Shown here: piece by piece, positions 401 to 46,106 of the stretch | Numbering within the stretch: the stretch's first letter is position 1 | Layout: each line of letters starts with the position of its first letter | Source: Octopus vulgaris | Taxonomy: Eukaryota | Direction: 5' to 3' | Length of the DNA stretch: 64,000 nt | Assembly (NCBI GenBank): GCA_951406725.2 | Contig: OX597819.1 | Location: 68,324,001-68,388,000, forward strand | Notes under the pieces: model-generated | The model's database searches: none | Told to the model about the DNA's origin: nothing | What the model saw: only the letters and a program-made list of their open reading frames with translations | Position numbers and translations under genes: made by a program

Positions 401-1156
401 CCCGCCGTCATATTAATGAACTTCAGCCACAGGATGAATTATTTTTGAATTAAATAAATTAAAACAATTTCTTAATATCATAATTCTCTTCTGCATTCTT
501 TCCGTGATATTCTGCTTTTAGCAACGCTTCTTTGTTCTTTAACTTCCAGCAACAAATGCAGAATTTGATGTGTTATATTCACCCTCACTCCAAACAATAG
601 AAATACGCATTTTAGTATTCTTCATAGACAACATGAAAGTTGGTCTTCAACGTGTGTTTAGAGTTTCTGAAATTGAAGTAAGTCTCCTGTTGAGTTTTGA
701 ACCATCACACTCAGACACTCTTTCTATCGGCTGCAGCCGACCGAACTGCCATAAGACGGTAATATATTGCTATATATGGCACTAATATGTACGTGAATGT
801 TACTCTACCCATCAGCACTGGCCGTTATAATTGATGTGGTGAATTTCAAAGAAAGTATGCGAGTTTTTCCATTAAGCGTTTTGATCGAATGTTTTGGAAA
901 CTTATGCTCACTGTTAAAATCAGTTGGTGTATTTAAGCTCAGATCAAAGTCACTCAACTATCCGTGGGAACTATCTCACTCTGCTCAGTGAATTGGTCAC
1001 TGGCTTTCTTTTACCTTTACCTACATAACATGTTTGTATTATCGTGTTCGACAAAAAGTATCAATCTTAAATTCTTGTGTAGAATAACGCACATAGATGA
1101 TATGCAGCTGCTTAAATTCCCTCGACTAATTTTTATCTTCAATAACTATGAACGAC

Positions 1157-1816
1157 AAGGCGGTGAGCAGGCAGAAACGTTAGCGCGCCGGGCGAAATAC
1201 TTAGCTGTATTTTGTCTGTCATTACGTTCTGAGTTCCCCCGAGATCGACTTTGCCTTTCAACCCTATCGAAGTCGATAAATTACGTACCATTTGGCTACT
1301 GGAGTTGATCTAATCGCCTGGCCTCCTCCCAAAAAATTTCGGGCCTTGCGCCGAGAGTACAAAATAATATAGTTCATTAAAAGGCGGCGAGCTGGCAGAA
1401 ACGTTAGCACCACGGGCGTAATGCTTAGCGGTATTTAGTGCCGTTACGTTCTGAGTTCAAATTCCGTCGAGGTCGAGTTGCCAATCGATTAGATCGACCC
1501 TAGTATTCAACTGGTACTTAATTTATCGACTCCGAAAGGCAAAGTCGACCTGGGCGGATTTTGAACTCAGAACGTAGCGGTAGACGAAATAACTATTTCT
1601 TTCCTGCCCAGAAAGGGCTAAACACAGAAGGGACAAACATGGACAGACAAAGGGATTAAGTCGATTACATCGACCCCAGTGCGTAACTGGTATTTAATTT
1701 ATCGACCCCGAAAGGATGAAAGGCAAGGTCGAATTTAAACTCAGTACGAAAGGGCAGACGAAATACGGCTACACATTTTGCCCGGCTTGCTAACATTTCT
1801 GCCAGCTTGCCACCTT
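1157..1816. mobile_element. Cluster of SINE family A copies: + copy 1157-1365, + 5' fragment 1381-1480, minus-strand dimer 1481-1816
   Basis: Repeated head GGCGGCGAGCTGGCAGAAACGTTAGC (A-box-like), GAGTTCAAATTCC (B-box) and central GGTCGACTTTGCCTTTCATCCTTTCGGGGTCGATAAATTAAGTACCAG, found more than 15 times in the window. Confidence 0.85.
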
Positions 1817-2089
1817 ACTTCACTAAAGAATAATATCTCTTTAATGCCTACAAAACCAGGAACATTTAGCACTAGACAAACGTGTCTGTGTTATATTATA
1901 TCCTGATTGTATTCTGCATTCAAACGCTTTTTTCGTGGTTGTCATTGACAGTATAATTATAGTTTCCATTAAGTAAGTTCTTGTAAAAATCGGGCTCTGT
2001 CGTGCTGTTGTGTCAAAAATGTTGGCATAATGTTTACGTTAAAAACAAATTATGAATTATAACGATAGAAATATTACACCGGTTCAAAA

Positions 2090-2277
2090 GCGCTAGGAAT
2101 CTAGGATTAAGGCGATTACATCGACCCAAGTGCGTAACTCGTACTTATTTAATCGACCCCGAAAGGATGAAAGGCAAAGTCGAACTTGGTGGAATTTGAA
2201 CTCAGAAGGTAACGGCAGACGAAATACCGCTGAGCATTTCACTCGGCGTGCTAACGATTCTGTCATCTCGCCGCCTT
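2090..2277 (-). mobile_element. SINE family A copy
   Basis: Reverse complement of the family A head and central domain. Confidence 0.8.
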
Positions 2278-3149
2278 TCTATTAATAAATTATAGTAACA
2301 CCATACTACCTCCACATTCTTCATATATTTTAGTATTCCTTGTCTTTTACGATGGCCAATAACTTAAACACGTTTTGTGTCTACGTACCACTACAGAGAT
2401 CACTGTTGTCGATTTCGTTTCTCTGCAACCTTTACCAAGGCTCGGGCAGGATTTGAGCCACCTTGCTCACGTTCCCAACTTTGGACCAAGGCCTAATTAT
2501 ATTTCCATAAAACATGACCAGCGCAGTAAATGTTATTACGTCGCCATAAAAAGCTATAAAATCTACATAAAGGTTGTAACTAGTGAGGGTGGTAGACTTC
2601 AAGGAAATTCTGTATTTACGAATGTTCTAGAAACATTGCTTGAGGTTATAAAAAGCTGGATGGCTGAACCCTAATATAGCAATAAATATACAACACAGAT
2701 CTCTTCCGTTTCGTTCCAAGAAATGTGCTCTCACTTTTGGCATACTATGTATGTTCGGCTAAAGGTAATCAACCAGGTGACCTAACGCTGACATAAATAC
2801 ATTTCTATATACATGCAATCTTTCTATATAATTACCTGCCTTATTCAGTTTATAATTACTATGTACGTATCATATAACAGTATAATTAAAACATTTATTG
2901 TTTACACATTTTAAAGCTTTAAATGTCACATACTTGCTAACAAATATACTTTTCAATATAATTAATTCCCTCGAATTTAGATAATGCATAACGGTTTGAA
3001 ATAATAAAAATAGGAAAGAAAATAGCATTTATTGTTGGATCCCTAATATCTAAGAATGCAGCTTCTTAACGTAATTTGTTCCATGTACACTTCCGCCCAA
3101 AATCCCTGGCCATCCCAACAAACCCATTGTGTGTGTGTGTGTGTGTGTG

Positions 3150-3525
3150 TGTGTGGTTAAGAAGCTTGCTTTGCAACCACATACTTGCGTGTTCATTTCC
3201 ACTGCGCGCCACATTGGACAACTTTTTTTCCACTGTCACCTTTGGACTCATACAACTGGTTACCAAGTTTTCATGTTCTACAAGTGATGGAGATCTTAAC
3301 GTTTTCCTTGAATGGTAAGTTAGTTAGTCCGTTTCAGGTCTGAAAGCCAGCAATTTTTGAGGGAATCGGGCATATTGATTATATCAACCCCGTTACTTGA
3401 ATTGCATTTTATTTTATTGATCCTGTAAGGAAGAAAGGCAAAACTAACAATTTGAACTCAGAACGTAAAGAGTCAAAACAAACGCTGCTAAATATTTTCT
3501 GAGATATGCCAACAATTCTGCCAGC
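3150..3525. mobile_element. Degenerate SINE B head (+, about 3150-3260) and degenerate SINE A (-, about 3340-3525)
   Basis: GGTTAAGAAGCTTGCTTTGCAACCAC matches the SINE B head. TTTGAACTCAGAACGTAAAG...CTGCCAGC matches SINE A in reverse. Confidence 0.6.
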
Positions 3526-18006: not shown

Positions 18007-18550
18007 ACACACTTTCCTTATTACTATCCATTATATAAGCAATTACAAGTTATTAATATCTCAATACAAAGATTTGTTTCTACAAACACATTTGTATAGT
18101 CTTCCTCATATGAGTAAGTCGGACATATTTCTCTGTTAATGTAAGTATATATATAATTATCTCCATACACACACACACAAACACACACAAACAAACAGAT
18201 ACACACACATGTATTTATATATGTATATGTTTATACATATATATATATATTGTTATGTGAATGTGTATAAATATGAATGTATCTATGTATACATGCATAT
18301 ACAAATTCATGTATTTTTATAAACTTTTGTGTTCTTAATGTGTGCTCCAGCAAAAATTCAAATGATTGTTTGAAATATAAGGACTTATATGGACATGGGT
18401 GTGTTGTATTTCTCACTTTATATTCTATCTCGTCTGCTGATTTTCAAACTCTCTCTGATTGCCTGTCTGTCTCTCTCTCTCTCTTTCTATCTATGTATAC
18501 GCACACAAACATACGAACACGCACATATTCATATACACAGACATATACAG

Positions 18551-18574
<24 letters not shown>

Positions 18575-18582
<8 letters not shown>

Positions 18583-20248
18583 TTAATAAGGGTGAGAGAA
18601 TTAGATACTAATTTAATAGTATATTTATTCCACACCAAGTGGCCTAGTGCTACGAGAAACCTGGATTATTATAATATTTTATAACATATTATAATATTTT
18701 CACAAAATAAATATAAGAGAGTGTTCACTATATTGATCACTCTAGCACCAGTTAATCCAAGAGGTTTCAACCACGAAAAATACATGTTTCCCATGAAAGC
18801 CGGTACGACTGTTAGCTCACACGGACAGGGCAAATAAAAAATAACAAAAATACAGATTATTTTGGGACAATTGTTTCGCTATTAATGAATTAAATGTAAT
18901 ATTACTTACAGTAATCCATTTGTAGCTCTTCAGCCAAGACTATCTGGATGAAATCCACTCAATCACACGCCAGATTTTACCATAACGATAAATACGCGTG
19001 CGGTTCAATTGATTACATCGGACGTTATAATTCAAATGCCCCAACCAACAGCGCGCCAAACTCTCACGGAAAACAAATACAGCATTTAGAAATAAATGCA
19101 GCATAATTATAATTAATTAATAAGGGTGAGAGAATTAGATACTAATTTAATAGTATATTTATTCCACACCAAGTGGCCTAGTGCTACGAGAAACCTGGAT
19201 TATTATAATATTTTATAACATATTATAATATTTTCACAAAATAAATATAAGAGAGTGTTCACTATATTGATCACTCTAGCACCAGTTAATCCAAGAGGTT
19301 TCAACCACGAAAAATACATGTTTCCCATGAAAGCCGGTACGACTGTTAGCTCACACGGACAGGGCAAATAAAAAATAACAAAAATACAGATTATTTTGGG
19401 ACAATTGTTTCGCTATTAATGAATTAAATGTAATATTACTTACAGTAATCCATTTGTAGCTCTTCAGCCAAGACTATCTGGATGAAATCCACTCAATCAC
19501 ACGCCAGATTTTACCATAACGATAAATACGCGTGCGGTTCAATTGATTACATCGGACGTTATAATTCAAATGCCCCAACCAACAGCGCGCCAAACTCTCA
19601 CGGAAAACAAATACAGCATTTAGAAATAAATGCAGCATAATTATAATTAATTAATAAGGGTGAGAGAATTAGATACTAATTTAATAGTATATTTATTCCA
19701 CACCAAGTGGCCTAGTGCTACGAGAAACCTGGATTATTATAATATTTTATAACATATTATAATATTTTCACAAAATAAATATAAGAGAGTGTTCACTATA
19801 TTGATCACTCTAGCACCAGTTAATCCAAGAGGTTTCAACCACGAAAAATACATGTTTCCCATGAAAGCCGGTACGACTGTTAGCTCACACGGACAGGGCA
19901 AATAAAAAATAACAAAAATACAGATTATTTTGGGACAATTGTTTCGCTATTAATGAATTAAATGTAATATTACTTACAGTAATCCATTTGTAGCTCTTCA
20001 GCCAAGACTATCTGGATGAAATCCACTCAATCACACGCCAGATTTTACCATAACGATAAATACGCGTGCGGTTCAATTGATTACATCGGACGTTATAATT
20101 CAAATGCCCCAACCAACAGCGCGCAAACTCACGGAAAACAAATACAGCATTTAGATATAAATGCAGCATAATTATAATTAATTAATAAGGGTGAGAGAAT
20201 TAGATACTAATTTAATAGTATATTTATTCCACACCAAGTGGCCTAGTG
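18575..20248 (-). repeat. Left block of the 534-bp hammerhead-containing tandem array (about 3.1 units, ribozyme sense on minus strand)
   Basis: The T of GGGTGAGAG falls at 18593, 19127, 19661 and 20192 (periods 534, 534, 531). Begins within (TA)n. Confidence 0.97.
18862..18937 (-). ncRNA. Type I hammerhead ribozyme (also at 19396-19471 and 19930-20005)
   Basis: Reverse complement of the motif described at 20877-20952. Confidence 0.85.
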
Positions 20249-23200
20249 AATTATAACGTCCGATGTAATCAATTGAACCGCACGCGTATTTATCGTTATG
20301 GTAAAATCTGGCGTGTGATTGAGTGGATTTCATCCAGATAGTCTTGGCTGAAAGCTACAAATGGATTACTGTAAGTAATATTACATTTAATTCATTAATA
20401 GCGAAACAATTGTCCCAAAATAATCTGTATTTTTGTTATTTTTTATTTGCCCTGTCCGTGTGAGCTAACAGTCGTACCGGCTTTCATGGGAAACATGTAT
20501 TTTTCGTGGTTGAAACCTCTTGGATTAACTGGTGCTAGAGTGATCAATATAGTGAACACTCTCTTATATTTATTTTGTGAAAATATTATAATATGTTATA
20601 AAATATTATAATAATCCAGGTTTCTCGTAGCACTAGGCCACTTGGTGTGGAATAAATATACTATTAAATTAGTATCTAATTCTCTCACCCTTATTAATTA
20701 ATTATAATTATGCTGCATTTATTTCTAAATGCTGTATTTGTTTTCCGTGAGAGTTTGGCGCGCTGTTGGTTGGGGCATTTGAATTATAACGTCCGATGTA
20801 ATCAATTGAACCGCACGCGTATTTATCGTTATGGTAAAATCTGGCGTGTGATTGAGTGGATTTCATCCAGATAGTCTTGGCTGAAGAGCTACAAATGGAT
20901 TACTGTAAGTAATATTACATTTAATTCATTAATAGCGAAACAATTGTCCCAAAATAATCTGTATTTTTGTTATTTTTTATTTGCCCTGTCCGTGTGAGCT
21001 AACAGTCGTACCGGCTTTCATGGGAAACATGTATTTTTCGTGGTTGAAACCTCTTGGATTAACTGGTGCTAGAGTGATCAATATAGTGAACACTCTCTTA
21101 TATTTATTTTGTGAAAATATTATAATATGTTATAAAATATTATAATAATCCAGGTTTCTCGTAGCACTAGGCCACTTGGTGTGGAATAAATATACTATTA
21201 AATTAGTATCTAATTCTCTCACCCTTATTAATTAATTATAATTATGCTGCATTTATTTCTAAATGCTGTATTTGTTTTCCGTGAGAGTTTGGCGCGCTGT
21301 TGGTTGGGGCATTTGAATTATAACGTCCGATGTAATCAATTGAACCGCACGCGTATTTATCGTTATGGTAAAATCTGGCGTGTGATTGAGTGGATTTCAT
21401 CCAGATAGTCTTGGCTGAAGAGCTACAAATGGATTACTGTAAGTAATATTACATTTAATTCATTAATAGCGAAACAATTGTCCCAAAATAATCTGTATTT
21501 TTGTTATTTTTTATTTGCCCTGTCCGTGTGAGCTAACAGTCGTACCGGCTTTCATGGGAAACATGTATTTTTCGTGGTTGAAACCTCTTGGATTAACTGG
21601 TGCTAGAGTGATCAATATAGTGAACACTCTCTTATATTTATTTTGTGAAAATATTATAATATGTTATAAAATATTATAATAATCCAGGTTTCTCGTAGCA
21701 CTAGGCCACTTGGTGTGGAATAAATATACTATTAAATTAGTATCTAATTCTCTCACCCTTATTAATTAATTATAATTATGCTGCATTTATTTCTAAATGC
21801 TGTATTTGTTTTCCGTGAGAGTTTGGCGCGCTGTTGGTTGGGGCATTTGAATTATAACGTCCGATGTAATCAATTGAACCGCACGCGTATTTATCGTTAT
21901 GGTAAAATCTGGCGTGTGATTGAGTGGATTTCATCCAGATAGTCTTGGCTGAAGAGCTACAAATGGATTACTGTAAGTAATATTACATTTAATTCATTAA
22001 TAGCGAAACAATTGTCCCAAAATAATCTGTATTTTTGTTATTTTTTATTTGCCCTGTCCGTGTGAGCTAACAGTCGTACCGGCTTTCATGGGAAACATGT
22101 ATTTTTCGTGGTTGAAACCTCTTGGATTAACTGGTGCTAGAGTGATCAATATAGTGAACACTCTCTTATATTTATTTTGTGAAAATATTATAATATGTTA
22201 TAAAATATTATAATAATCCAGGTTTCTCGTAGCACTAGGCCACTTGGTGTGGAATAAATATACTATTAAATTAGTATCTAATTCTCTCACCCTTATTAAT
22301 TAATTATAATTATGCTGCATTTATTTCTAAATGCTGTATTTGTTTTCCGTGAGAGTTTGGCGCGCTGTTGGTTGGGGCATTTGAATTATAACGTCCGATG
22401 TAATCAATTGAACCGCACGCGTATTTATCGTTATGGTAAAATCTGGCGTGTGATTGAGTGGATTTCATCCAGATAGTCTTGGCTGAAGAGCTACAAATGG
22501 ATTACTGTAAGTAATATTACATTTAATTCATTAATAGCGAAACAATTGTCCCAAAATAATCTGTATTTTTGTTATTTTTTATTTGCCCTGTCCGTGTGAG
22601 CTAACAGTCGTACCGGCTTTCATGGGAAACATGTATTTTCGTGGTTGAAACCTCTTGGATTAACTGGTGCTAGAGTGATCAATATAGTGAACACTCTCTT
22701 ATATTTATTTTGTGAAAATATTATAATATGTTATAAAATATTATAATAATCCAGGTTTCTCGTAGCACTAGGCCACTTGGTGTGGAATAAATATACTATT
22801 AAATTAGTATCTAATTCTCTCACCCTTATTAATTAATTATAATTATGCTGCATTTATTTCTAAATGCTGTATTTGTTTTCCGTGAGAGTTTGGCGCGCTG
22901 TTGGTTGGGGCATTTGAATTATAACGTCCGATGTAATCAATTGAACCGCACGCGTATTTATCGTTATGGTAAAATCTGGCGTGTGATTGAGTGGATTTCA
23001 TCCAGATAGTCTTGGCTGAAGAGCTACAAATGGATTACTGTAAGTAATATTACATTTAATTCATTAATAGCGAAACAATTGTCCCAAAATAATCTGTATT
23101 TTTGTTATTTTTTATTTGCCCTGTCCGTGTGAGCTAACAGTCGTACCGGCTTTCATGGGAAACATGTATTTTTCGTGGTTGAAACCTCTTGGATTAACTG

Positions 23201-26200
23201 GTGCTAGAGTGATCAATATAGTGAACACTCTCTTATATTTATTTTGTGAAAATATTATAATATGTTATAAAATATTATAATAATCCAGGTTTCTCGTAGC
23301 ACTAGGCCACTTGGTGTGGAATAAATATACTATTAAATTAGTATCTAATTCTCTCACCCTTATTAATTAATTATAATTATGCTGCATTTATTTCTAAATG
23401 CTGTATTTGTTTTCCGTGAGAGTTTGGCGCGCTGTTGGTTGGGGCATTTGAATTATAACGTCCGATGTAATCAATTGAACCGCACGCGTATTTATCGTTA
23501 TGGTAAAATCTGGCGTGTGATTGAGTGGATTTCATCCAGATAGTCTTGGCTGAAGAGCTACAAATGGATTACTGTAAGTAATATTACATTTAATTCATTA
23601 ATAGCGAAACAATTGTCCCAAAATAATCTGTATTTTTGTTATTTTTTATTTGCCCTGTCCGTGTGAGCTAACAGTCGTACCGGCTTTCATGGGAAACATG
23701 TATTTTTCGTGGTTGAAACCTCTTGGATTAACTGGTGCTAGAGTGATCAATATAGTGAACACTCTCTTATATTTATTTTGTGAAAATATTATAATATGTT
23801 ATAAAATATTATAATAATCCAGGTTTCTCGTAGCACTAGGCCACTTGGTGTGGAATAAATATACTATTAAATTAGTATCTAATTCTCTCACCCTTATTAA
23901 TTAATTATAATTATGCTGCATTTATTTCTAAATGCTGTATTTGTTTTCCGTGAGAGTTTGGCGCGCTGTTGGTTGGGGCATTTGAATTATAACGTCCGAT
24001 GTAATCAATTGAACCGCACGCGTATTTATCGTTATGGTAAAATCTGGCGTGTGATTGAGTGGATTTCATCCAGATAGTCTTGGCTGAAGAGCTACAAATG
24101 GATTACTGTAAGTAATATTACATTTAATTCATTAATAGCGAAACAATTGTCCCAAAATAATCTGTATTTTTGTTATTTTTTATTTGCCCTGTCCGTGTGA
24201 GCTAACAGTCGTACCGGCTTTCATGGGAAACATGTATTTTTCGTGGTTGAAACCTCTTGGATTAACTGGTGCTAGAGTGATCAATATAGTGAACACTCTC
24301 TTATATTTATTTTGTGAAAATATTATAATATGTTATAAAATATTATAATAATCCAGGTTTCTCGTAGCACTAGGCCACTTGGTGTGGAATAAATATACTA
24401 TTAAATTAGTATCTAATTCTCTCACCCTTATTAATTAATTATAATTATGCTGCATTTATTTCTAAATGCTGTATTTGTTTTCCGTGAGAGTTTGGCGCGC
24501 TGTTGGTTGGGGCATTTGAATTATAACGTCCGATGTAATCAATTGAACCGCACGCGTATTTATCGTTATGGTAAAATCTGGCGTGTGATTGAGTGGATTT
24601 CATCCAGATAGTCTTGGCTGAAGAGCTACAAATGGATTACTGTAAGTAATATTACATTTAATTCATTAATAGCGAAACAATTGTCCCAAAATAATCTGTA
24701 TTTTTGTTATTTTTTATTTGCCCTGTCCGTGTGAGCTAACAGTCGTACCGGCTTTCATGGGAAACATGTATTTTTCGTGGTTGAAACCTCTTGGATTAAC
24801 TGGTGCTAGAGTGATCAATATAGTGAACACTCTCTTATATTTATTTTGTGAAAATATTATAATATGTTATAAAATATTATAATAATCCAGGTTTCTCGTA
24901 GCACTAGGCCACTTGGTGTGGAATAAATATACTATTAAATTAGTATCTAATTCTCTCACCCTTATTAATTAATTATAATTATGCTGCATTTATTTCTAAA
25001 TGCTGTATTTGTTTTCCGTGAGAGTTTGGCGCGCTGTTGGTTGGGGCATTTGAATTATAACGTCCGATGTAATCAATTGAACCGCACGCGTATTTATCGT
25101 TATGGTAAAATCTGGCGTGTGATTGAGTGGATTTCATCCAGATAGTCTTGGCTGAAGAGCTACAAATGGATTACTGTAAGTAATATTACATTTAATTCAT
25201 TAATAGCGAAACAATTGTCCCAAAATAATCTGTATTTTTGTTATTTTTTATTTGCCCTGTCCGTGTGAGCTAACAGTCGTACCGGCTTTCATGGGAAACA
25301 TGTATTTTTCGTGGTTGAAACCTCTTGGATTAACTGGTGCTAGAGTGATCAATATAGTGAACACTCTCTTATATTTATTTTGTGAAAATATTATAATATG
25401 TTATAAAATATTATAATAATCCAGGTTTCTCGTAGCACTAGGCCACTTGGTGTGGAATAAATATACTATTAAATTAGTATCTAATTCTCTCACCCTTATT
25501 AATTAATTATAATTATGCTGCATTTATTTCTAAATGCTGTATTTGTTTTCCGTGAGAGTTTGGCGCGCTGTTGGTTGGGGCATTTGAATTATAACGTCCG
25601 ATGTAATCAATTGAACCGCACGCGTATTTATCGTTATGGTAAAATCTGGCGTGTGATTGAGTGGATTTCATCCAGATAGTCTTGGCTGAAGAGCTACAAA
25701 TGGATTACTGTAAGTAATATTACATTTAATTCATTAATAGCGAAACAATTGTCCCAAAATAATCTGTATTTTTGTTATTTTTTATTTGCCCTGTCCGTGT
25801 GAGCTAACAGTCGTACCGGCTTTCATGGGAAACATGTATTTTTCGTGGTTGAAACCTCTTGGATTAACTGGTGCTAGAGTGATCAATATAGTGAACACTC
25901 TCTTATATTTATTTTGTGAAAATATTATAATATGTTATAAAATATTATAATAATCCAGGTTTCTCGTAGCACTAGGCCACTTGGTGTGGAATAAATATAC
26001 TATTAAATTAGTATCTAATTCTCTCACCCTTATTAATTAATTATAATTATGCTGCATTTATTTCTAAATGCTGTATTTGTTTTCCGTGAGAGTTTGGCGC
26101 GCTGTTGGTTGGGGCATTTGAATTATAACGTCCGATGTAATCAATTGAACCGCACGCGTATTTATCGTTATGGTAAAATCTGGCGTGTGATTGAGTGGAT

Positions 26201-26982
26201 TTCATCCAGATAGTCTTGGCTGAAGAGCTACAAATGGATTACTGTAAGTAATATTACATTTAATTCATTAATAGCGAAACAATTGTCCCAAAATAATCTG
26301 TATTTTTGTTATTTTTTATTTGCCCTGTCCGTGTGAGCTAACAGTCGTACCGGCTTTCATGGGAAACATGTATTTTTCGTGGTTGAAACCTCTTGGATTA
26401 ACTGGTGCTAGAGTGATCAATATAGTGAACACTCTCTTATATTTATTTTGTGAAAATATTATAATATGTTATAAAATATTATAATAATCCAGGTTTCTCG
26501 TAGCACTAGGCCACTTGGTGTGGAATAAATATACTATTAAATTAGTATCTAATTCTCTCACCCTTATTAATTAATTATAATTATGCTGCATTTATTTCTA
26601 AATGCTGTATTTGTTTTCCGTGAGAGTTTGGCGCGCTGTTGGTTGGGGCATTTGAATTATAACGTCCGATGTAATCAATTGAACCGCACGCGTATTTATC
26701 GTTATGGTAAAATCTGGCGTGTGATTGAGTGGATTTCATCCAGATAGTCTTGGCTGAAGAGCTACAAATGGATTACTGTAAGTAATATTACATTTAATTC
26801 ATTAATAGCGAAACAATTGTCCCAAAATAATCTGTATTTTTGTTATTTTTTATTTGCCCTGTCCGTGTGAGCTAACAGTCGTACCGGCTTTCATGGGAAA
26901 CATGTATTTTTCGTGGTTGAAACCTCTTGGATTAACTGGTGCTAGAGTGATCAATATAGTGAACACTCTCTTATATTTATTT
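20247..26982 (+). repeat. Right block of the 534-bp tandem array (about 12.6 units), inverted relative to the left block
   Basis: Reverse complement of the left-block unit. Period 534, with single-nt deletions near 20352 and 22636. Ends in TATTAT(TA)n. Confidence 0.97.
20877..20952 (+). ncRNA. Type I hammerhead ribozyme, predicted cleavage after GUC at 20948; identical copies start at 21411, 21945, 22479, 23012, 23546, 24080, 24614, 25148, 25682, 26216 and 26750
   Basis: Stem I UUGG/CCAA; core CUGAAGA; stem II GCUA...UAGC extended by AAUGGAUUA/UAAUUCAUU and UGUAA/UUACA; GAAA; stem III palindrome ACAAUUGU; GUC cleavage triplet. All invariant core nucleotides are present. Confidence 0.88.
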
Positions 26983-27647
26983 ATTATTATATATATATAT
27001 ATATATGTATGGTATGTATGTATATATGTATGTATTCATGTATCTACGAAAACGGAATGCAAATGCCGCTGAATTAATGCTACTGCACATATCTGTGTTC
27101 TGTGTTGTAGGAACACGCAAGTAGAAGCTTATTACGATGTAGTCATCAGGAATCTGTGACTAATTCCACTATAATAATTGCTAATACGGTATTGCATATT
27201 GATTGCGTAAATGCATAATCACATTTCTTAATGTACAAGGGAATATTTCGTGCTATTCAAGCAATTAGGTTCTGTATACGAGTTTCAGGCCACACGAGTA
27301 TTTCTCTCACTTTCAATTACATATGGAGATATTGGCCTTTGGTTTCGAAGCGCTGTGATGGCGAAAATATCCTAACGCCGTCTGTTCTAAAATACGAAAT
27401 ATTCGTAGTTAATAATTTAAAGATATTTCGTTTACATCCGTGTACAACTCCACGCAATTATGTACTCATGTTTATTGATTCTATACATGTGTGTATTATC
27501 AATCTATTTGATTGACTCTCAGTTATTCTATCTTTCTAGCCGTCCTCCTCTCTATCTATTTCTGTCTCTTTTCTTCTCTCTGCAGCATCTCTTCCCCTGT
27601 CTCTCTCTTCACTAACACACACACAAACACACACACACACACACACA

Positions 27648-32059: not shown

Positions 32060-32094
32060 CATATATATAAAATCAAATTATAAAAATCAAAAAT

Positions 32095-34036
32095 ATAAAA
32101 TCAAACCCTAAAGCTTTCTTTAAGTTTGCCAAAGAGACAGCCACAGTGCACCAGAGAATAGGACCTCTCTTCCAAAAAGATGGCTCTCTCACAGGAAATC
32201 CCACGAGGATAAGTGAAATACTGAACGAACAGTTCCAAAGTGTGTTCACTACACCTCTAGGACACAGGCAAGTAAACAACCCAGAAGAATTCTTTGCCAC
32301 TTTACCTGCGGCCAAAGAGACAAAAATTGAGTACATCAACATCGAAGATGATGATATCACACTAGCCATTGATGAGATTGACACAAACTCAGCTGCTGGA
32401 CCTGATGGATTCCCAGCGATCCTTCTCAAATCGTGCAAACGAGCCCTTGCAAAACCGCTACAGCTTCTTTTTCAGAGCTTTCTTGCAAGTGGTAAGCTCC
32501 CAGTCAAACTGAAAGAGGGGGTAATATGCCCTATCCATAAGGGAGGTAGCAGAGCAGATGCTAAAAATTATAGGCCTATCTCTCTGACCTCACACATCAG
32601 CAAAGTCATGGAACGAATAGTCCGTAAGAAACTAATCATGTTCCTTGAAGAAAATGACTTACTGTCTGACACCCAGCATGGATTTCGACCAGGTAGAGGC
32701 TGCCTAACACAGCTCCTGCAACACTATGACTGGGTGTTGAAACAGCTACTAAATGGCTCAAATGTGGATGTAATATATCTTGACTTTGCAAAAGCCTTTG
32801 ATAAAGTCGACCATGGTATGATCTGTCACAAACTGCGTGGTCTCGGCATAGGCGGGAAACTTGGAGAGTGGCTGCACAACTTCCTAAAAGACAGAAAACA
32901 GGCAGTTGTGAGCAATGGAGCCACCTCCAGGGAAACGCAAATAACAAGCGGTGTCCCACAGGGCACTGTCTTGGGGCCACTGATGTTCATAGTGGCCCTT
33001 TCAGACATGCCTTCAGTTGCTACGATGACCACCCTTGCTAGCTATGCAGATGACACAAAAGTCTCCCACGCAATACAAAACCCTGAAAATATTGCGCATC
33101 TGCAACATGAGCTGGACACAATATACAGGTGGGCTGAGGACAACAACATGCAGTTTAATGCAGGTAAGTTCCAGGCCCTGCGCTACTGGCACACAAAGGT
33201 AAATGACGTGAAGACTGGATACACTGGCCCAGGAAGAATTGCAATCCCTGAGTCAAAATCAGTGCGTGACCTGGGCATTGACATGAGCAATGATGCATCT
33301 TTCCAAATGCATATTGCTAATCTGGTGATAAAATGCAGACGGCTAGCTGGATGGATTCTCCGAACTTTCAGAACAAGAGAGAAGGAGACACTGATGGTCC
33401 TATGGAAAACATTTGTCCTCAGCCGCTTGGACTACTGCTCCCAACTTTGGTCACCACACAATATAAAACAAACAGCAGAACTCGAAGCAACTCAGAGAAG
33501 CTACACAAAGAAAATCGTCTCAATGCAAAATGTCAGCTACTAGGAAAGACTGAAGGTATTAAACCTCTTCTCCCTGGAGCGGAGGCGGGAGAGATATGCA
33601 GTGATATACATCTGGAAAATCCTGGAGGGTCTTGTCCCAAACTTTGGCATTCAAAGTTACTCCAACCGCAGAACGGGGCGCCGCTGCGTGGTGCCAAGGA
33701 TTCCAACATCACCATCAAAATACAGGTCCAGATACTGCAACAGCTTGGGTTTCAGAGGACCACAGCTCTTTAACATCCTCCCTAAATGCCTGAGAGACTT
33801 ACATGGTGTGGATGTGGGTTTCTTTAAAACTAAACTGGATCTCTTCTTGTTGGGAGTCCCAGATGAACCTACCTCACGACAGGAGACACGGATGCGGGCA
33901 GCAGCATCGAACTCCCTTGTTGATCAAGTGCCACGTATCAGAGGTGGATTCACAAACTAGTGTAGCTCATTCAGCGGTGGTGCCCCAGCATGGCCGCGGC
34001 CTTGGGGCTAAAACATTTTTAAGGATTTTAAGGATT
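32095..34036 (+). mobile_element. 5'-truncated young CR1-group LINE with RT ORF2 (one premature stop at 33541), inserted in (TA)n
   Basis: ORF 32146-33543 carries AAGPDG, NYRPISLTS, QHGFRPGR, YLDFAKAFDKV, SGVPQGTVLGP and YADD. The frame continues past TAG (likely TGG originally) to the stop at 33960. Tail (AAGGATTTT)2; (TA)n on both flanks. Confidence 0.95.
32146..33960 (+). pseudogene. Reverse transcriptase ORF2 fragment of the LINE above
   Basis: 465-aa RT ORF plus an in-frame C-terminal part (33601-33960), separated by one stop. No endonuclease domain because of 5' truncation. Confidence 0.9.
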
Positions 34037-35721: not shown

Positions 35722-36300
35722 TAAGGCGTCCAGTTGGCAGAATCATTAGCACACCGGGCGAAATGCTTGGCTGTATTTCGTCTGCCGCTACGTTCTGAGT
35801 TCAAATTCCGCCGAGGTCGACTTTGCCTTTCATCCTTTCGGGGTCGATTAAATAAGTACCAGTTACGCACTGGGGTCGATATAATTGACTTAATCCATTT
35901 GTCTGTCCTTGTTTGTCCTCTCTGTGTTTAGCCCCTTGTGGGTAGTAAAGAAATAGGTATTTCGCCGGCCGCTATGTTCTGAGTTCAAATTCCGCCGAGG
36001 TCGACTTTGCCTTTCTTCCTTTCGGTTTCGATTAAATAAGTACCAGTTATGCACTGGGGTTGATATAATCGACTTAATCCGTTGTTTGTCCTTGCTTGTC
36101 CTTTCTGTGTCTAGCCCCTTGTGGGTAGTAAAGAAATAGGTATTTCGCCGACCGCTACATACTGAGTTCACATTCTGCCAATTCTCGAATTAGCTTTTCA
36201 TCCTTTCGGGGTCGATACATTAAGTACCCGTGAAACACGGGTCGATGTAATTGACCTGTACTCTCCCCACAAATTTCAGGCCTTGTAGCTTTAATAGAAA
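35722..36300 (+). mobile_element. SINE A tandem trimer (about 184-bp units)
   Basis: GTATTTCG at 35773, 35957 and 36140; one 5' head; the last unit has the alternative tail. Confidence 0.85.
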
Positions 36301-37049: not shown

Positions 37050-37776
37050 CCGAATAAATTTTGGACAACAGAAGCCAAGTTTTTATTATTGAAATTTTAA
37101 AATTTATAATTCAGAACAATTTATTTCCTATTTGATGACACATACTATCGTCAAAAATGCGGAATTATGATGGAAAGAAAAGTGGCCTCTGTTCTTGCAA
37201 ACGTAATGGTGGGATATTTTGAATTTATCATATATAAAGTGCCGCTGCAAAAATATTGATATCCATTTCACCATTATATGGGAGAGAACTAGAAAAGATA
37301 CCTGGATGAATGCTTTATCATTTGGAAGTAGAATATTGATAGACTTTTGGAGTTTAAATCAATACTAAATAATATAAACCCTAATATTCAATTTACAAAA
37401 GAACATAGCAAAGAACCGTTCCCTTTCTTCGATATCATGATAAAATGTTTACAACCAAATTATAACTGACATGTTTTATGAACCAACGGACTCGAAGCAA
37501 TATCCCCTGTTTAGTGCATGCCACCCGAAACACATCCAAAGAAATATCTCCTTTAAATTAACAAAAATGATTTGCACAATGGTGTCTGATAGAAATACTC
37601 GGGACATACGTCTTCGAGACCCCAGAACCATACAAACTGAAAGACAGTATCCACCCTCATAGACTATGGAATTAAGCGTGCTAATAAAACAAATATTGAA
37701 AGAATAAGGGTAACAAAACCTAACACCACACCTAATCTCAAAACACTACTGTATATATCAACTCACAATCCTTTTA

Positions 37777-45521: not shown

Positions 45522-46106
45522 AAGGCGGCGAGCTGGCAGAAACGTTAGCACACCCGGGCGAAATGCGTAGCCGTATTTCGTCTGCCGTTACGTTCTGAGT
45601 TCAAATTCCGCCGAGGTCGACTTTACCTTTCATCCTTTCGCGGTCTATTAGATAAGTACCAGTTACGCATTGGAGTCGATATAATCGACTTAATCCGTTT
45701 ATCGGTCCTTGTTTGTCCTCTCTATCTTTAGCCCCTTGTGGGTAGTAAAGAAATAAGTATTTCGTCTGTCGTTACATTCTGAGTTCAAATTCCGCCGAGG
45801 TCGACTTTGCCTTTCATCCTTTCGGGGTCGATAAATTAAGTACCAGTTACACACTGGGGTCGATATAATCGACTTAATCTGTTTGTCTGTCCTTGTTTGT
45901 CCTCTGTGTTTATCTCCTTGTGGGTAGTAAAGAAATAGATATTTTGTCTGTCCTTACGCACTGAGTCCAAATTCCGCCGAGGTTGACTTTGACTTTCATT
46001 ATTATGGGTTCGATAAATTAAGTACCAGTTGCGTATTGAGGTCGATCTAATCGACTGTCCCCTTCCCCCAAAATTTTGGGCCTTGTGCCTAGAGTAGAAA
46101 AGAATA
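45522..46106 (+). mobile_element. SINE A tandem trimer (about 184-bp units)
   Basis: Units start at 45573, 45757 and about 45939. Same architecture as 35722-36300. Confidence 0.88.

Follow-up and report, generated by a model that had tools for sequence, protein, structure and literature searches.

The window analysed here, a 64,000-nucleotide stretch of Octopus vulgaris DNA (contig OX597819.1, positions 68,324,001 to 68,388,000), contains an 8.4-kb array of near-identical 534-bp units bearing hammerhead ribozyme motifs. How did this array arise? Judged from sequence, we have good confidence that it is a recent insertion of an animal retrozyme of the class without long terminal repeats (non-LTR), and that an endonuclease and reverse transcriptase (RT) borrowed from a Penelope-like element (PLE) likely inserted it into a (TA)n tract. 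Mobilisation of the retrozyme by a PLE is the firmer part of this answer, and seems highly probable. An earlier note on this DNA had proposed copying by Penelope-like machinery, and the proposal is now supported by the dispersal of the family, (TA)n targeting, 15–16-bp target duplications and covariation in stem I of the ribozyme. It is also backed by two fixed 3′ ends, of a kind shared with autonomous PLEs, and by the finding of one haplotype per insertion.

The array and its hammerhead

The insertion (18574..26982, both strands) consists of two divergent arms of a 534-bp unit that has no open reading frame (ORF). The inverted arm (18574..20248, minus strand) holds 3.14 units, running from unit position 383 to unit position 458, and its outer 3′ end lies at a site termed B, with a tail of ~130 nt. 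The direct arm (20249..26982, plus strand) holds 12.61 units, the longest among 99 arms measured, and its outer 3′ end lies at site A (unit 327), without the tail. The arms meet head-to-head at 20247..20248 with a 2-nt microhomology, TG; this inner junction is non-palindromic (unit 383 versus 533). Unit coordinates are window positions minus 20782, as set by a reference unit at 20783..21316 (plus strand), in which the segment between the two fixed 3′ ends, from site A at ~unit 327 to site B at ~unit 458, covers ~130 nt (21110..21240, plus strand). The insertion is flanked by a (TA)n target tract on the left (18543..18573) and an AT/(TA)n tract on the right (26983..27035).

Ten of the 12 full plus units and both full minus units are identical to the reference (12/14 overall), while the remaining two full plus units each lack one base. 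The total of 3.14 + 12.61 = 15.75 units agrees with the ~15.7 copies of a 534-bp unit given in the earlier note, as does the lack of a long ORF: no frame of at least 100 aa lies inside the array, and one low-complexity frame of the flank overlaps its first 9 bases. The plain tandem array described there was incorrect, since the inverted arm at 18574-20248 is joined head-to-head to 20249-26982. Nor is 534 bp larger than usual for metazoan retrozymes, as that note had supposed; it falls within the published range of unit sizes, 51–972 bp (bioRxiv 10.64898/2026.07.22.740005).

Sixteen type I hammerhead motifs are present in the array (13 plus, 3 minus), 15 of them intact, the same numbers as previously noted. 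In the reference unit the motif occupies 20877..20952 (plus strand), with stem I at 20877-80/20949-52, the core at 20881-87, a 49-nt stem II at 20888-20936, GAAA at 20937-40 and a palindromic stem III at 20940-47. Cleavage is predicted after 20948, exactly where it had been placed before. Further plus motifs start at 20344, 21411, 21945, 22479, 23012, 23546, 24080, 24614, 25148, 25682, 26216 and 26750, and the three intact minus motifs of the inverted arm lie at 18862-18937, 19396-19471 and 19930-20005 (span 18862..20005). The motif at 20344 is missing one base (G8) of the CUGAAGA core, which is either a real error or an assembly error.

The core-plus-stem pattern gave 748 exact matches in the 2.8 Gb of genome searched and none with a reversed control; it is therefore not present by chance. 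The suggested Rfam check gave no match in the window at the gathering score, and only chance-level matches at E<=10, probably because of the 49-nt stem II.

The unit belongs to a young, dispersed family, of which the array is one recent insertion. When 40 of 824 candidates were scored, 254 matches were obtained with up to 100% identity, and a subfamily 26-mer has 295 exact matches in the genome. An exact junction between unit position 458 (site B) and (TA)n occurs 790 times, corresponding to at least 790 insertion ends. Divergence between loci reached ~5% in a first sample and 8–12% in a second. There is also an older sister family at ~70% identity, with units of ~505 bp, 2540 candidates and the same two ends; one of the two matches to a search pattern for short-stem-II relatives led to it.

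Ribozyme constraint was examined across the two families. In an alignment of 14 copies drawn from both, 95.8% of cells pair. In stem I, both partners of 5 of the 7 pairs differ between the young and the older family, a covariation score reached by 0/500 shuffles. Among 99 young loci, the free base N7 is variable in 22/81 covered loci, while the 12 core bases are variable in 4, two of which share U4C. The core conservation and stem covariation that the earlier note had asked of other genomic copies were thus found, mostly in a comparison of two lineages, as compensatory change in stem I between families and a freely varying N7. The monomer is also strongly self-paired: as a circle it folds at −151 kcal/mol, compared with −110 ± 7 for 40 shuffles (z −6.1), and five older-family monomers fold at z −3.3 to −6.5 (15 shuffles each). 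Predicted pairing probabilities in the monomer are 0.77–0.99 for stems I and II.

Many further long-stem-II hammerhead families, recognised by eye, lie in (TA)n tracts and have different palindromic stem III sequences (L041, L042, L074, L078, L104, L122, L123, L128, L129, L131, L192 and other loci). Several of these have a short C run ~12–18 nt before the outer end, again by eye.

Insertion ends and template

At 89/99 arm ends (TA)4 was present within 25 nt. Two loci show clear target duplications, of 15 and 16 bp; the remaining loci are inside repeats, where duplications are not delimitable. Arms have their ribozyme-sense 3′ ends at one of two sites, A (about 324–330) or B (about 442–458), and not at the cleavage site (unit 166). 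The 5′ ends are evenly spread along the unit, again with no pile-up at the cleavage site.

The two sites are used in combination. In a sample of 60 loci, 39 were two-armed, and of the classifiable ones 33/34 paired an A end with a B end (binomial p 4e-9); the others were one A+A locus, which is a degraded duplicate, and 5 that were left unclassified. The 21 single-armed loci comprised 11 A, 9 B and 1 other. A second sample of 40 loci, picked by their B end and scored by eye, contained 25 two-armed insertions, in which the other arm ended at A in 23 and at B in 0, with 2 unresolved. We infer that A (~327) and B (~458) are reverse-transcription start sites, and that the segment between them is the equivalent of the PLE ‘tail’. 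Locus L052, which overlaps L053, was left out of the analyses of haplotypes and ends, and both loci were left out of those of ribozyme variation and private variants.

The sequence of the arms bears on the number of templates used per insertion. Both arms were identical in 23 of the 28 loci with at least 200 shared sites, compared with ~1.3 expected by chance. Within arms, 72% of 273 unit pairs were identical and divergence was 0.00086 per site. Fifteen substitutions, spread over 12 loci, were each unique to one of the 99 loci and fixed in every unit of both arms. The cleavage site was crossed without an indel in 336/337 passes. A unit-length circle is a simple explanation of these shared haplotypes, fixed private variants and scar-free passes, and on balance we lean towards it as the template. 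The earlier note had read near-zero divergence as a sign of rolling-circle copying; the homogeneity stands, but within one array it is not proof by itself.

Candidate enzymes and competing explanations

Autonomous PLEs were sought in the same genome. A GIY-YIG search recovered young Neptune-type families, whose two-armed copies carry a tail on one arm only (3/3). Two further families have the Hydra-clade marks RWK/RWR, DKT and CxCX5C (as given in PMC8557442). One of these is very young (L238-L257, e.g. L239:2573-4723). Its open frames are 717 aa long and have YKDD at the RT active site, its hammerhead has a CCGAAGA core, its tail measures ~70 nt, and it follows the A+B end rule in 18/18 cases; it is a good candidate for biochemistry. 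The other is more decayed and follows the rule in 4/4 cases by eye; it has a tail of ~95–125 nt and a long-stem-II hammerhead with the same stem III as the unit. When the unit was scored with a profile of the hammerhead region of this second family, it reached 12.0 bits, whereas 500 shuffles gave no more than 4.9. By sequence, four PLE families of many were compared with the unit. Two Neptune-type families, the 781-aa one and another, showed no homology to it and were set aside as partners, and the 717-aa family likewise fails as a sequence-related partner. A Hydra-clade PLE is the likeliest candidate for the partner enzyme of the retrozyme.

The proposed genome-wide search for dispersed arrays or linkage to a PLE ORF succeeded in its first part (790 junctions, 748 motifs) and failed in its second. 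Three sets of loci showed no PLE ORF that continued into the unit: 62 loci searched with Neptune queries (Hydra rows were below 56% identity), 30 of the older family (Neptune queries) and 40 picked by their 3′ end (queries from both clades). PLE fragments beside arrays at L061, L127, L064, L289 and L290 were considered as linked ORFs and rejected; they are set apart by (TA)n or other DNA and were read as shared targeting. At L061:2995-3340 a site-A array end abuts a 5′-truncated fragment of the 781-aa family via a short TA tract with a small duplication, reflecting either shared targeting or co-insertion. The insertion at L127 lies between flanks that are reverse complements of one another. 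Loci L051 and L053 (G000:C4:160.91-160.93 Mb) hold a near-duplicate array with a common left flank, ~14 kb apart and degraded in the second, which is either a segmental duplication or an assembly artefact.

A number of observations weigh against copying of a retrozyme circle by a PLE. The covariation is largely a contrast between two lineages, with the structure taken from one of them, and within the young family, conservation across the ribozyme as a whole falls short of significance (1/34 versus 60/499 sites, p 0.08). Stem III has a pair probability of only 0.03–0.04 in the monomer; because it is so weak, the fold predicts that self-cleavage of the unit is likely to be dimeric or protein-assisted, in line with reports on axolotl retrozymes (PMC7229834) and on the anole PLE (PMC11167929). 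The private variants are private only among 99 sampled loci of at least 790. In the arrays at L121 and L124, some units of both arms differ from the rest by minor variants, among them U4/C4 in the core at L124; such mixed units hint at a multimer or a mixed template and are not explained by a single monomer. Similarity of the unit to Hydra-type pseudo-LTRs (pLTRs) is weak and confined to the hammerhead region, the profile of the second Hydra-type family giving no match in the tail and none for an older-family copy. Among the ~130 loci inspected, out of many hundreds, there was no autonomous element with the 534-bp unit as its terminal repeat. Finally, the anole PLE needs no hammerhead cleavage, and uncleaved RNA is its main template (PMC11167929).

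The last of these points favours a different template for the same twin priming by a PLE: an uncleaved, linear, multimeric read-through transcript, the hammerhead being slow or incidental and no circle being formed. This is a serious alternative, though a distinctly less probable one than the circle. It gains from the mainly unprocessed RNA used by the anole PLE, from the cleavage in vitro of only 1 of 9 predicted Xenopus retrozyme dimers (bioRxiv 10.64898/2026.07.22.740005), from the weak stem III and from the mixed units at L121 and L124; a homogeneous parent array would also yield homogeneous daughters. However, arrays are uniform inside though loci differ, and locus-specific variants are fixed across both arms, so that repeated monomer bottlenecks would be needed. 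The 12.6-unit arm would require a 6.7-kb RNA that remained uncleaved despite its 12 ribozymes, and core conservation and stem I covariation also count against this account. In another scheme reverse transcription yields a single arm, and its inverted partner is made by fold-back (self-primed) DNA synthesis or by endonuclease resolution of a hairpin, as self-priming has been proposed for PLE inverted repeats (PMC3846280). Shared haplotypes would then be trivial, and near-palindromic junctions are indeed in excess: in 20/61 loci the distance between the inner junctions is within 40 nt, against 15% expected, a few zeros being alignment-phase artefacts. We nevertheless regard fold-back as unlikely. 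The second arm must still stop exactly at the other fixed site (33/34), most junctions are non-palindromic, that of this array included, and both arms share only 8 of 96 minor variants, although artefacts of alignment and later mutations make up part of the 96. Purified anole PLE protein, moreover, cuts and extends both strands in vitro, starting at two internal sites that bound the tail (PMC11167929).

Two further explanations would deny the unit its independence as a replicon or its mobility. The units could be amplified pLTRs of an autonomous PLE yet unseen, and the arrays truncated copies of it. The unit does have pLTR-like anatomy, a hammerhead followed by two end sites, a similar hammerhead, with a long stem II and an identical stem III, occurs in one Hydra-type pLTR whose tail is ~120 nt, and the loci inspected are a small part of the family. 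Set against this, none of the three sets of loci searched contained a PLE ORF running into the unit, and arms wrap from unit to unit for up to 12.6 rounds, as they do in the older family, making this origin improbable. Ordinary satellite growth by local unequal crossover or slippage, or an assembly artefact, has been largely refuted already and would surprise us greatly. Local expansion is the standard model for satellites and has been suggested for retrozymes (bioRxiv 10.64898/2026.07.22.740005), and a few loci show assembly noise (L053, L045), but neither fits hundreds of dispersed sites on many chromosomes with fixed ends and target duplications, inverted arms with common private variants, or ribozyme covariation.

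Proposed cycle and relation to known elements

The steps by which a retrozyme and a borrowed PLE enzyme could produce the array are as follows. Transcription and processing: arrays would be transcribed in the ribozyme sense, hammerheads are predicted to cut the RNA to monomers of 534 nt, a reaction that probably calls for dimers or for assistance from protein, and the monomers would be circularised by a host ligase. Twin priming: to judge from the ends, the PLE enzyme would nick both target strands ~15 bp apart, and each of the two target 3′ ends would start synthesis on one shared RNA, at unit ~327 in one case and at ~458 in the other. Elongation and joining: each complementary DNA would circle the template for several rounds, here 12.6 and 3.1, passing the cleavage site without a scar, and the two would then be joined by microhomology to give head-to-head arms. 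In its most specific form, a dimeric Hydra-clade Penelope enzyme nicks both (TA)n strands and carries out two strand-displacing reverse transcriptions round one ribozyme-made 534-nt circle from sites 130 nt apart; this full version we put forward tentatively, as rather less secure than the circle itself.

With regard to transcription, 20/24 sequencing runs contain the unit, 14 of these being only guessed to be RNA. In run X6, whose RNA status is likewise guessed, contigs cover all 30 unit bins at a word depth of about 600–3500; it was not used as evidence. A U2-type upstream element was not found in the unit by a crude test with a profile from 11 distinct U2 upstream regions, and a sigma-70 promoter scan, irrelevant for an animal, was at chance level.

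At the level of sequence the family has every defining feature of an animal non-LTR retrozyme: copies are dispersed and mobile, there is no LTR, and target duplications exceed 4 bp (2 informative loci). It resembles the published members (PMC7229834; bioRxiv 10.64898/2026.07.22.740005) in its non-coding tandem units of a few hundred bp with GC below 50%, a type I hammerhead per unit with a short palindromic stem III, long target duplications, a strongly self-paired monomer and autonomous PLEs in the same genome. It differs in its 49-nt stem II, which Rfam misses, and in that most insertions consist of two arms in inverted orientation that end at two fixed sites; neither ‘inverted’ nor ‘tail’ appears as a word in the main text of PMC7229834. 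There is also no clear sequence link to a PLE pLTR here. A plant LTR retrozyme was rejected, since the type I topology, absence of LTRs and 15–16-bp duplications contrast with type III hammerheads in LTRs and a 4-bp duplication.

With endonuclease-containing (EN+) PLEs of the Hydra and Neptune clades (PMC8557442; PMC3846280; PMC11167929) the family shares (TA)n targeting, an inverted 5′-truncated copy, a tail at one end only, an internal reverse-transcription start and a hammerhead upstream of the ends. Unlike autonomous EN+ PLEs, it has no RT/GIY-YIG ORF in the unit (array and 62 + 30 + 40 loci) and both of its arms are multi-unit. Its tail of ~130 nt compares with 30–40 nt reported for EN+ PLEs, and with about 70 and 95–125 nt in the Hydra-type families of this genome. 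The unit thus behaves as a PLE substrate and not as an autonomous PLE. Non-autonomous Chlamys PLEs such as MRC1 (PMC8557442) are similar in being multicopy head-to-tail insertions with a microsatellite bias, but they resemble their autonomous partners at the 3′ end and are mostly without hammerheads.

In the literature searched, with subscription journals and repeat databases outside its scope, we found no description of a two-start-site rule for retrozymes, nor of the 534-bp family among octopus or cephalopod hammerhead ribozymes; no literature combining retrozymes with twin priming was found either. The word ‘ribozyme’ does not occur in PMC13282606.

Other repeats were observed in the window and the genome. 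A 490-aa open frame at window 32071-33543 (+) has a reverse transcriptase domain (Pfam RVT_1, E 3e-30) and is probably a long interspersed element, unrelated to the array. A decayed Neptune-type PLE fragment, ~50% identical to the 781-aa family, lies at 37082-37775 (+). Tandem ~183-bp copies of one related repeat, a candidate octopus family resembling short interspersed elements, occur at 35773-36228 and 45574-46056. Elsewhere, a young Neptune-type PLE (L091-L099, e.g. L094:1268-4968) has a 479-aa upstream ORF of no Pfam family and a CCAAT/CRE-rich (CRE, cAMP response element) terminal repeat; scans detected no canonical hammerhead in it.

The element is a new family of a known class, and its value lies in a testable mechanism rather than in the element itself. 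Copying of retrozymes into DNA has so far been proposed from co-occurrence with PLEs and pLTR similarity (PMC7229834; bioRxiv 10.64898/2026.07.22.740005), and the origin of the inverted copy with a one-sided tail in PLE insertions is described as still open (PMC8557442, PMC11167929). If the proposed cycle is correct, retrozyme arrays would be accounted for by twin-primed rolling-circle reverse transcription; on a linear template, the same twin priming would also account for the inverted copy and one-sided tail of Penelope insertions, which have long lacked an explanation. The family's footprint has almost no exceptions, its start sites can be named, and its young copies run into hundreds. Since the genome also encodes a candidate enzyme that is young and intact, both copying questions can be tested directly in vitro.

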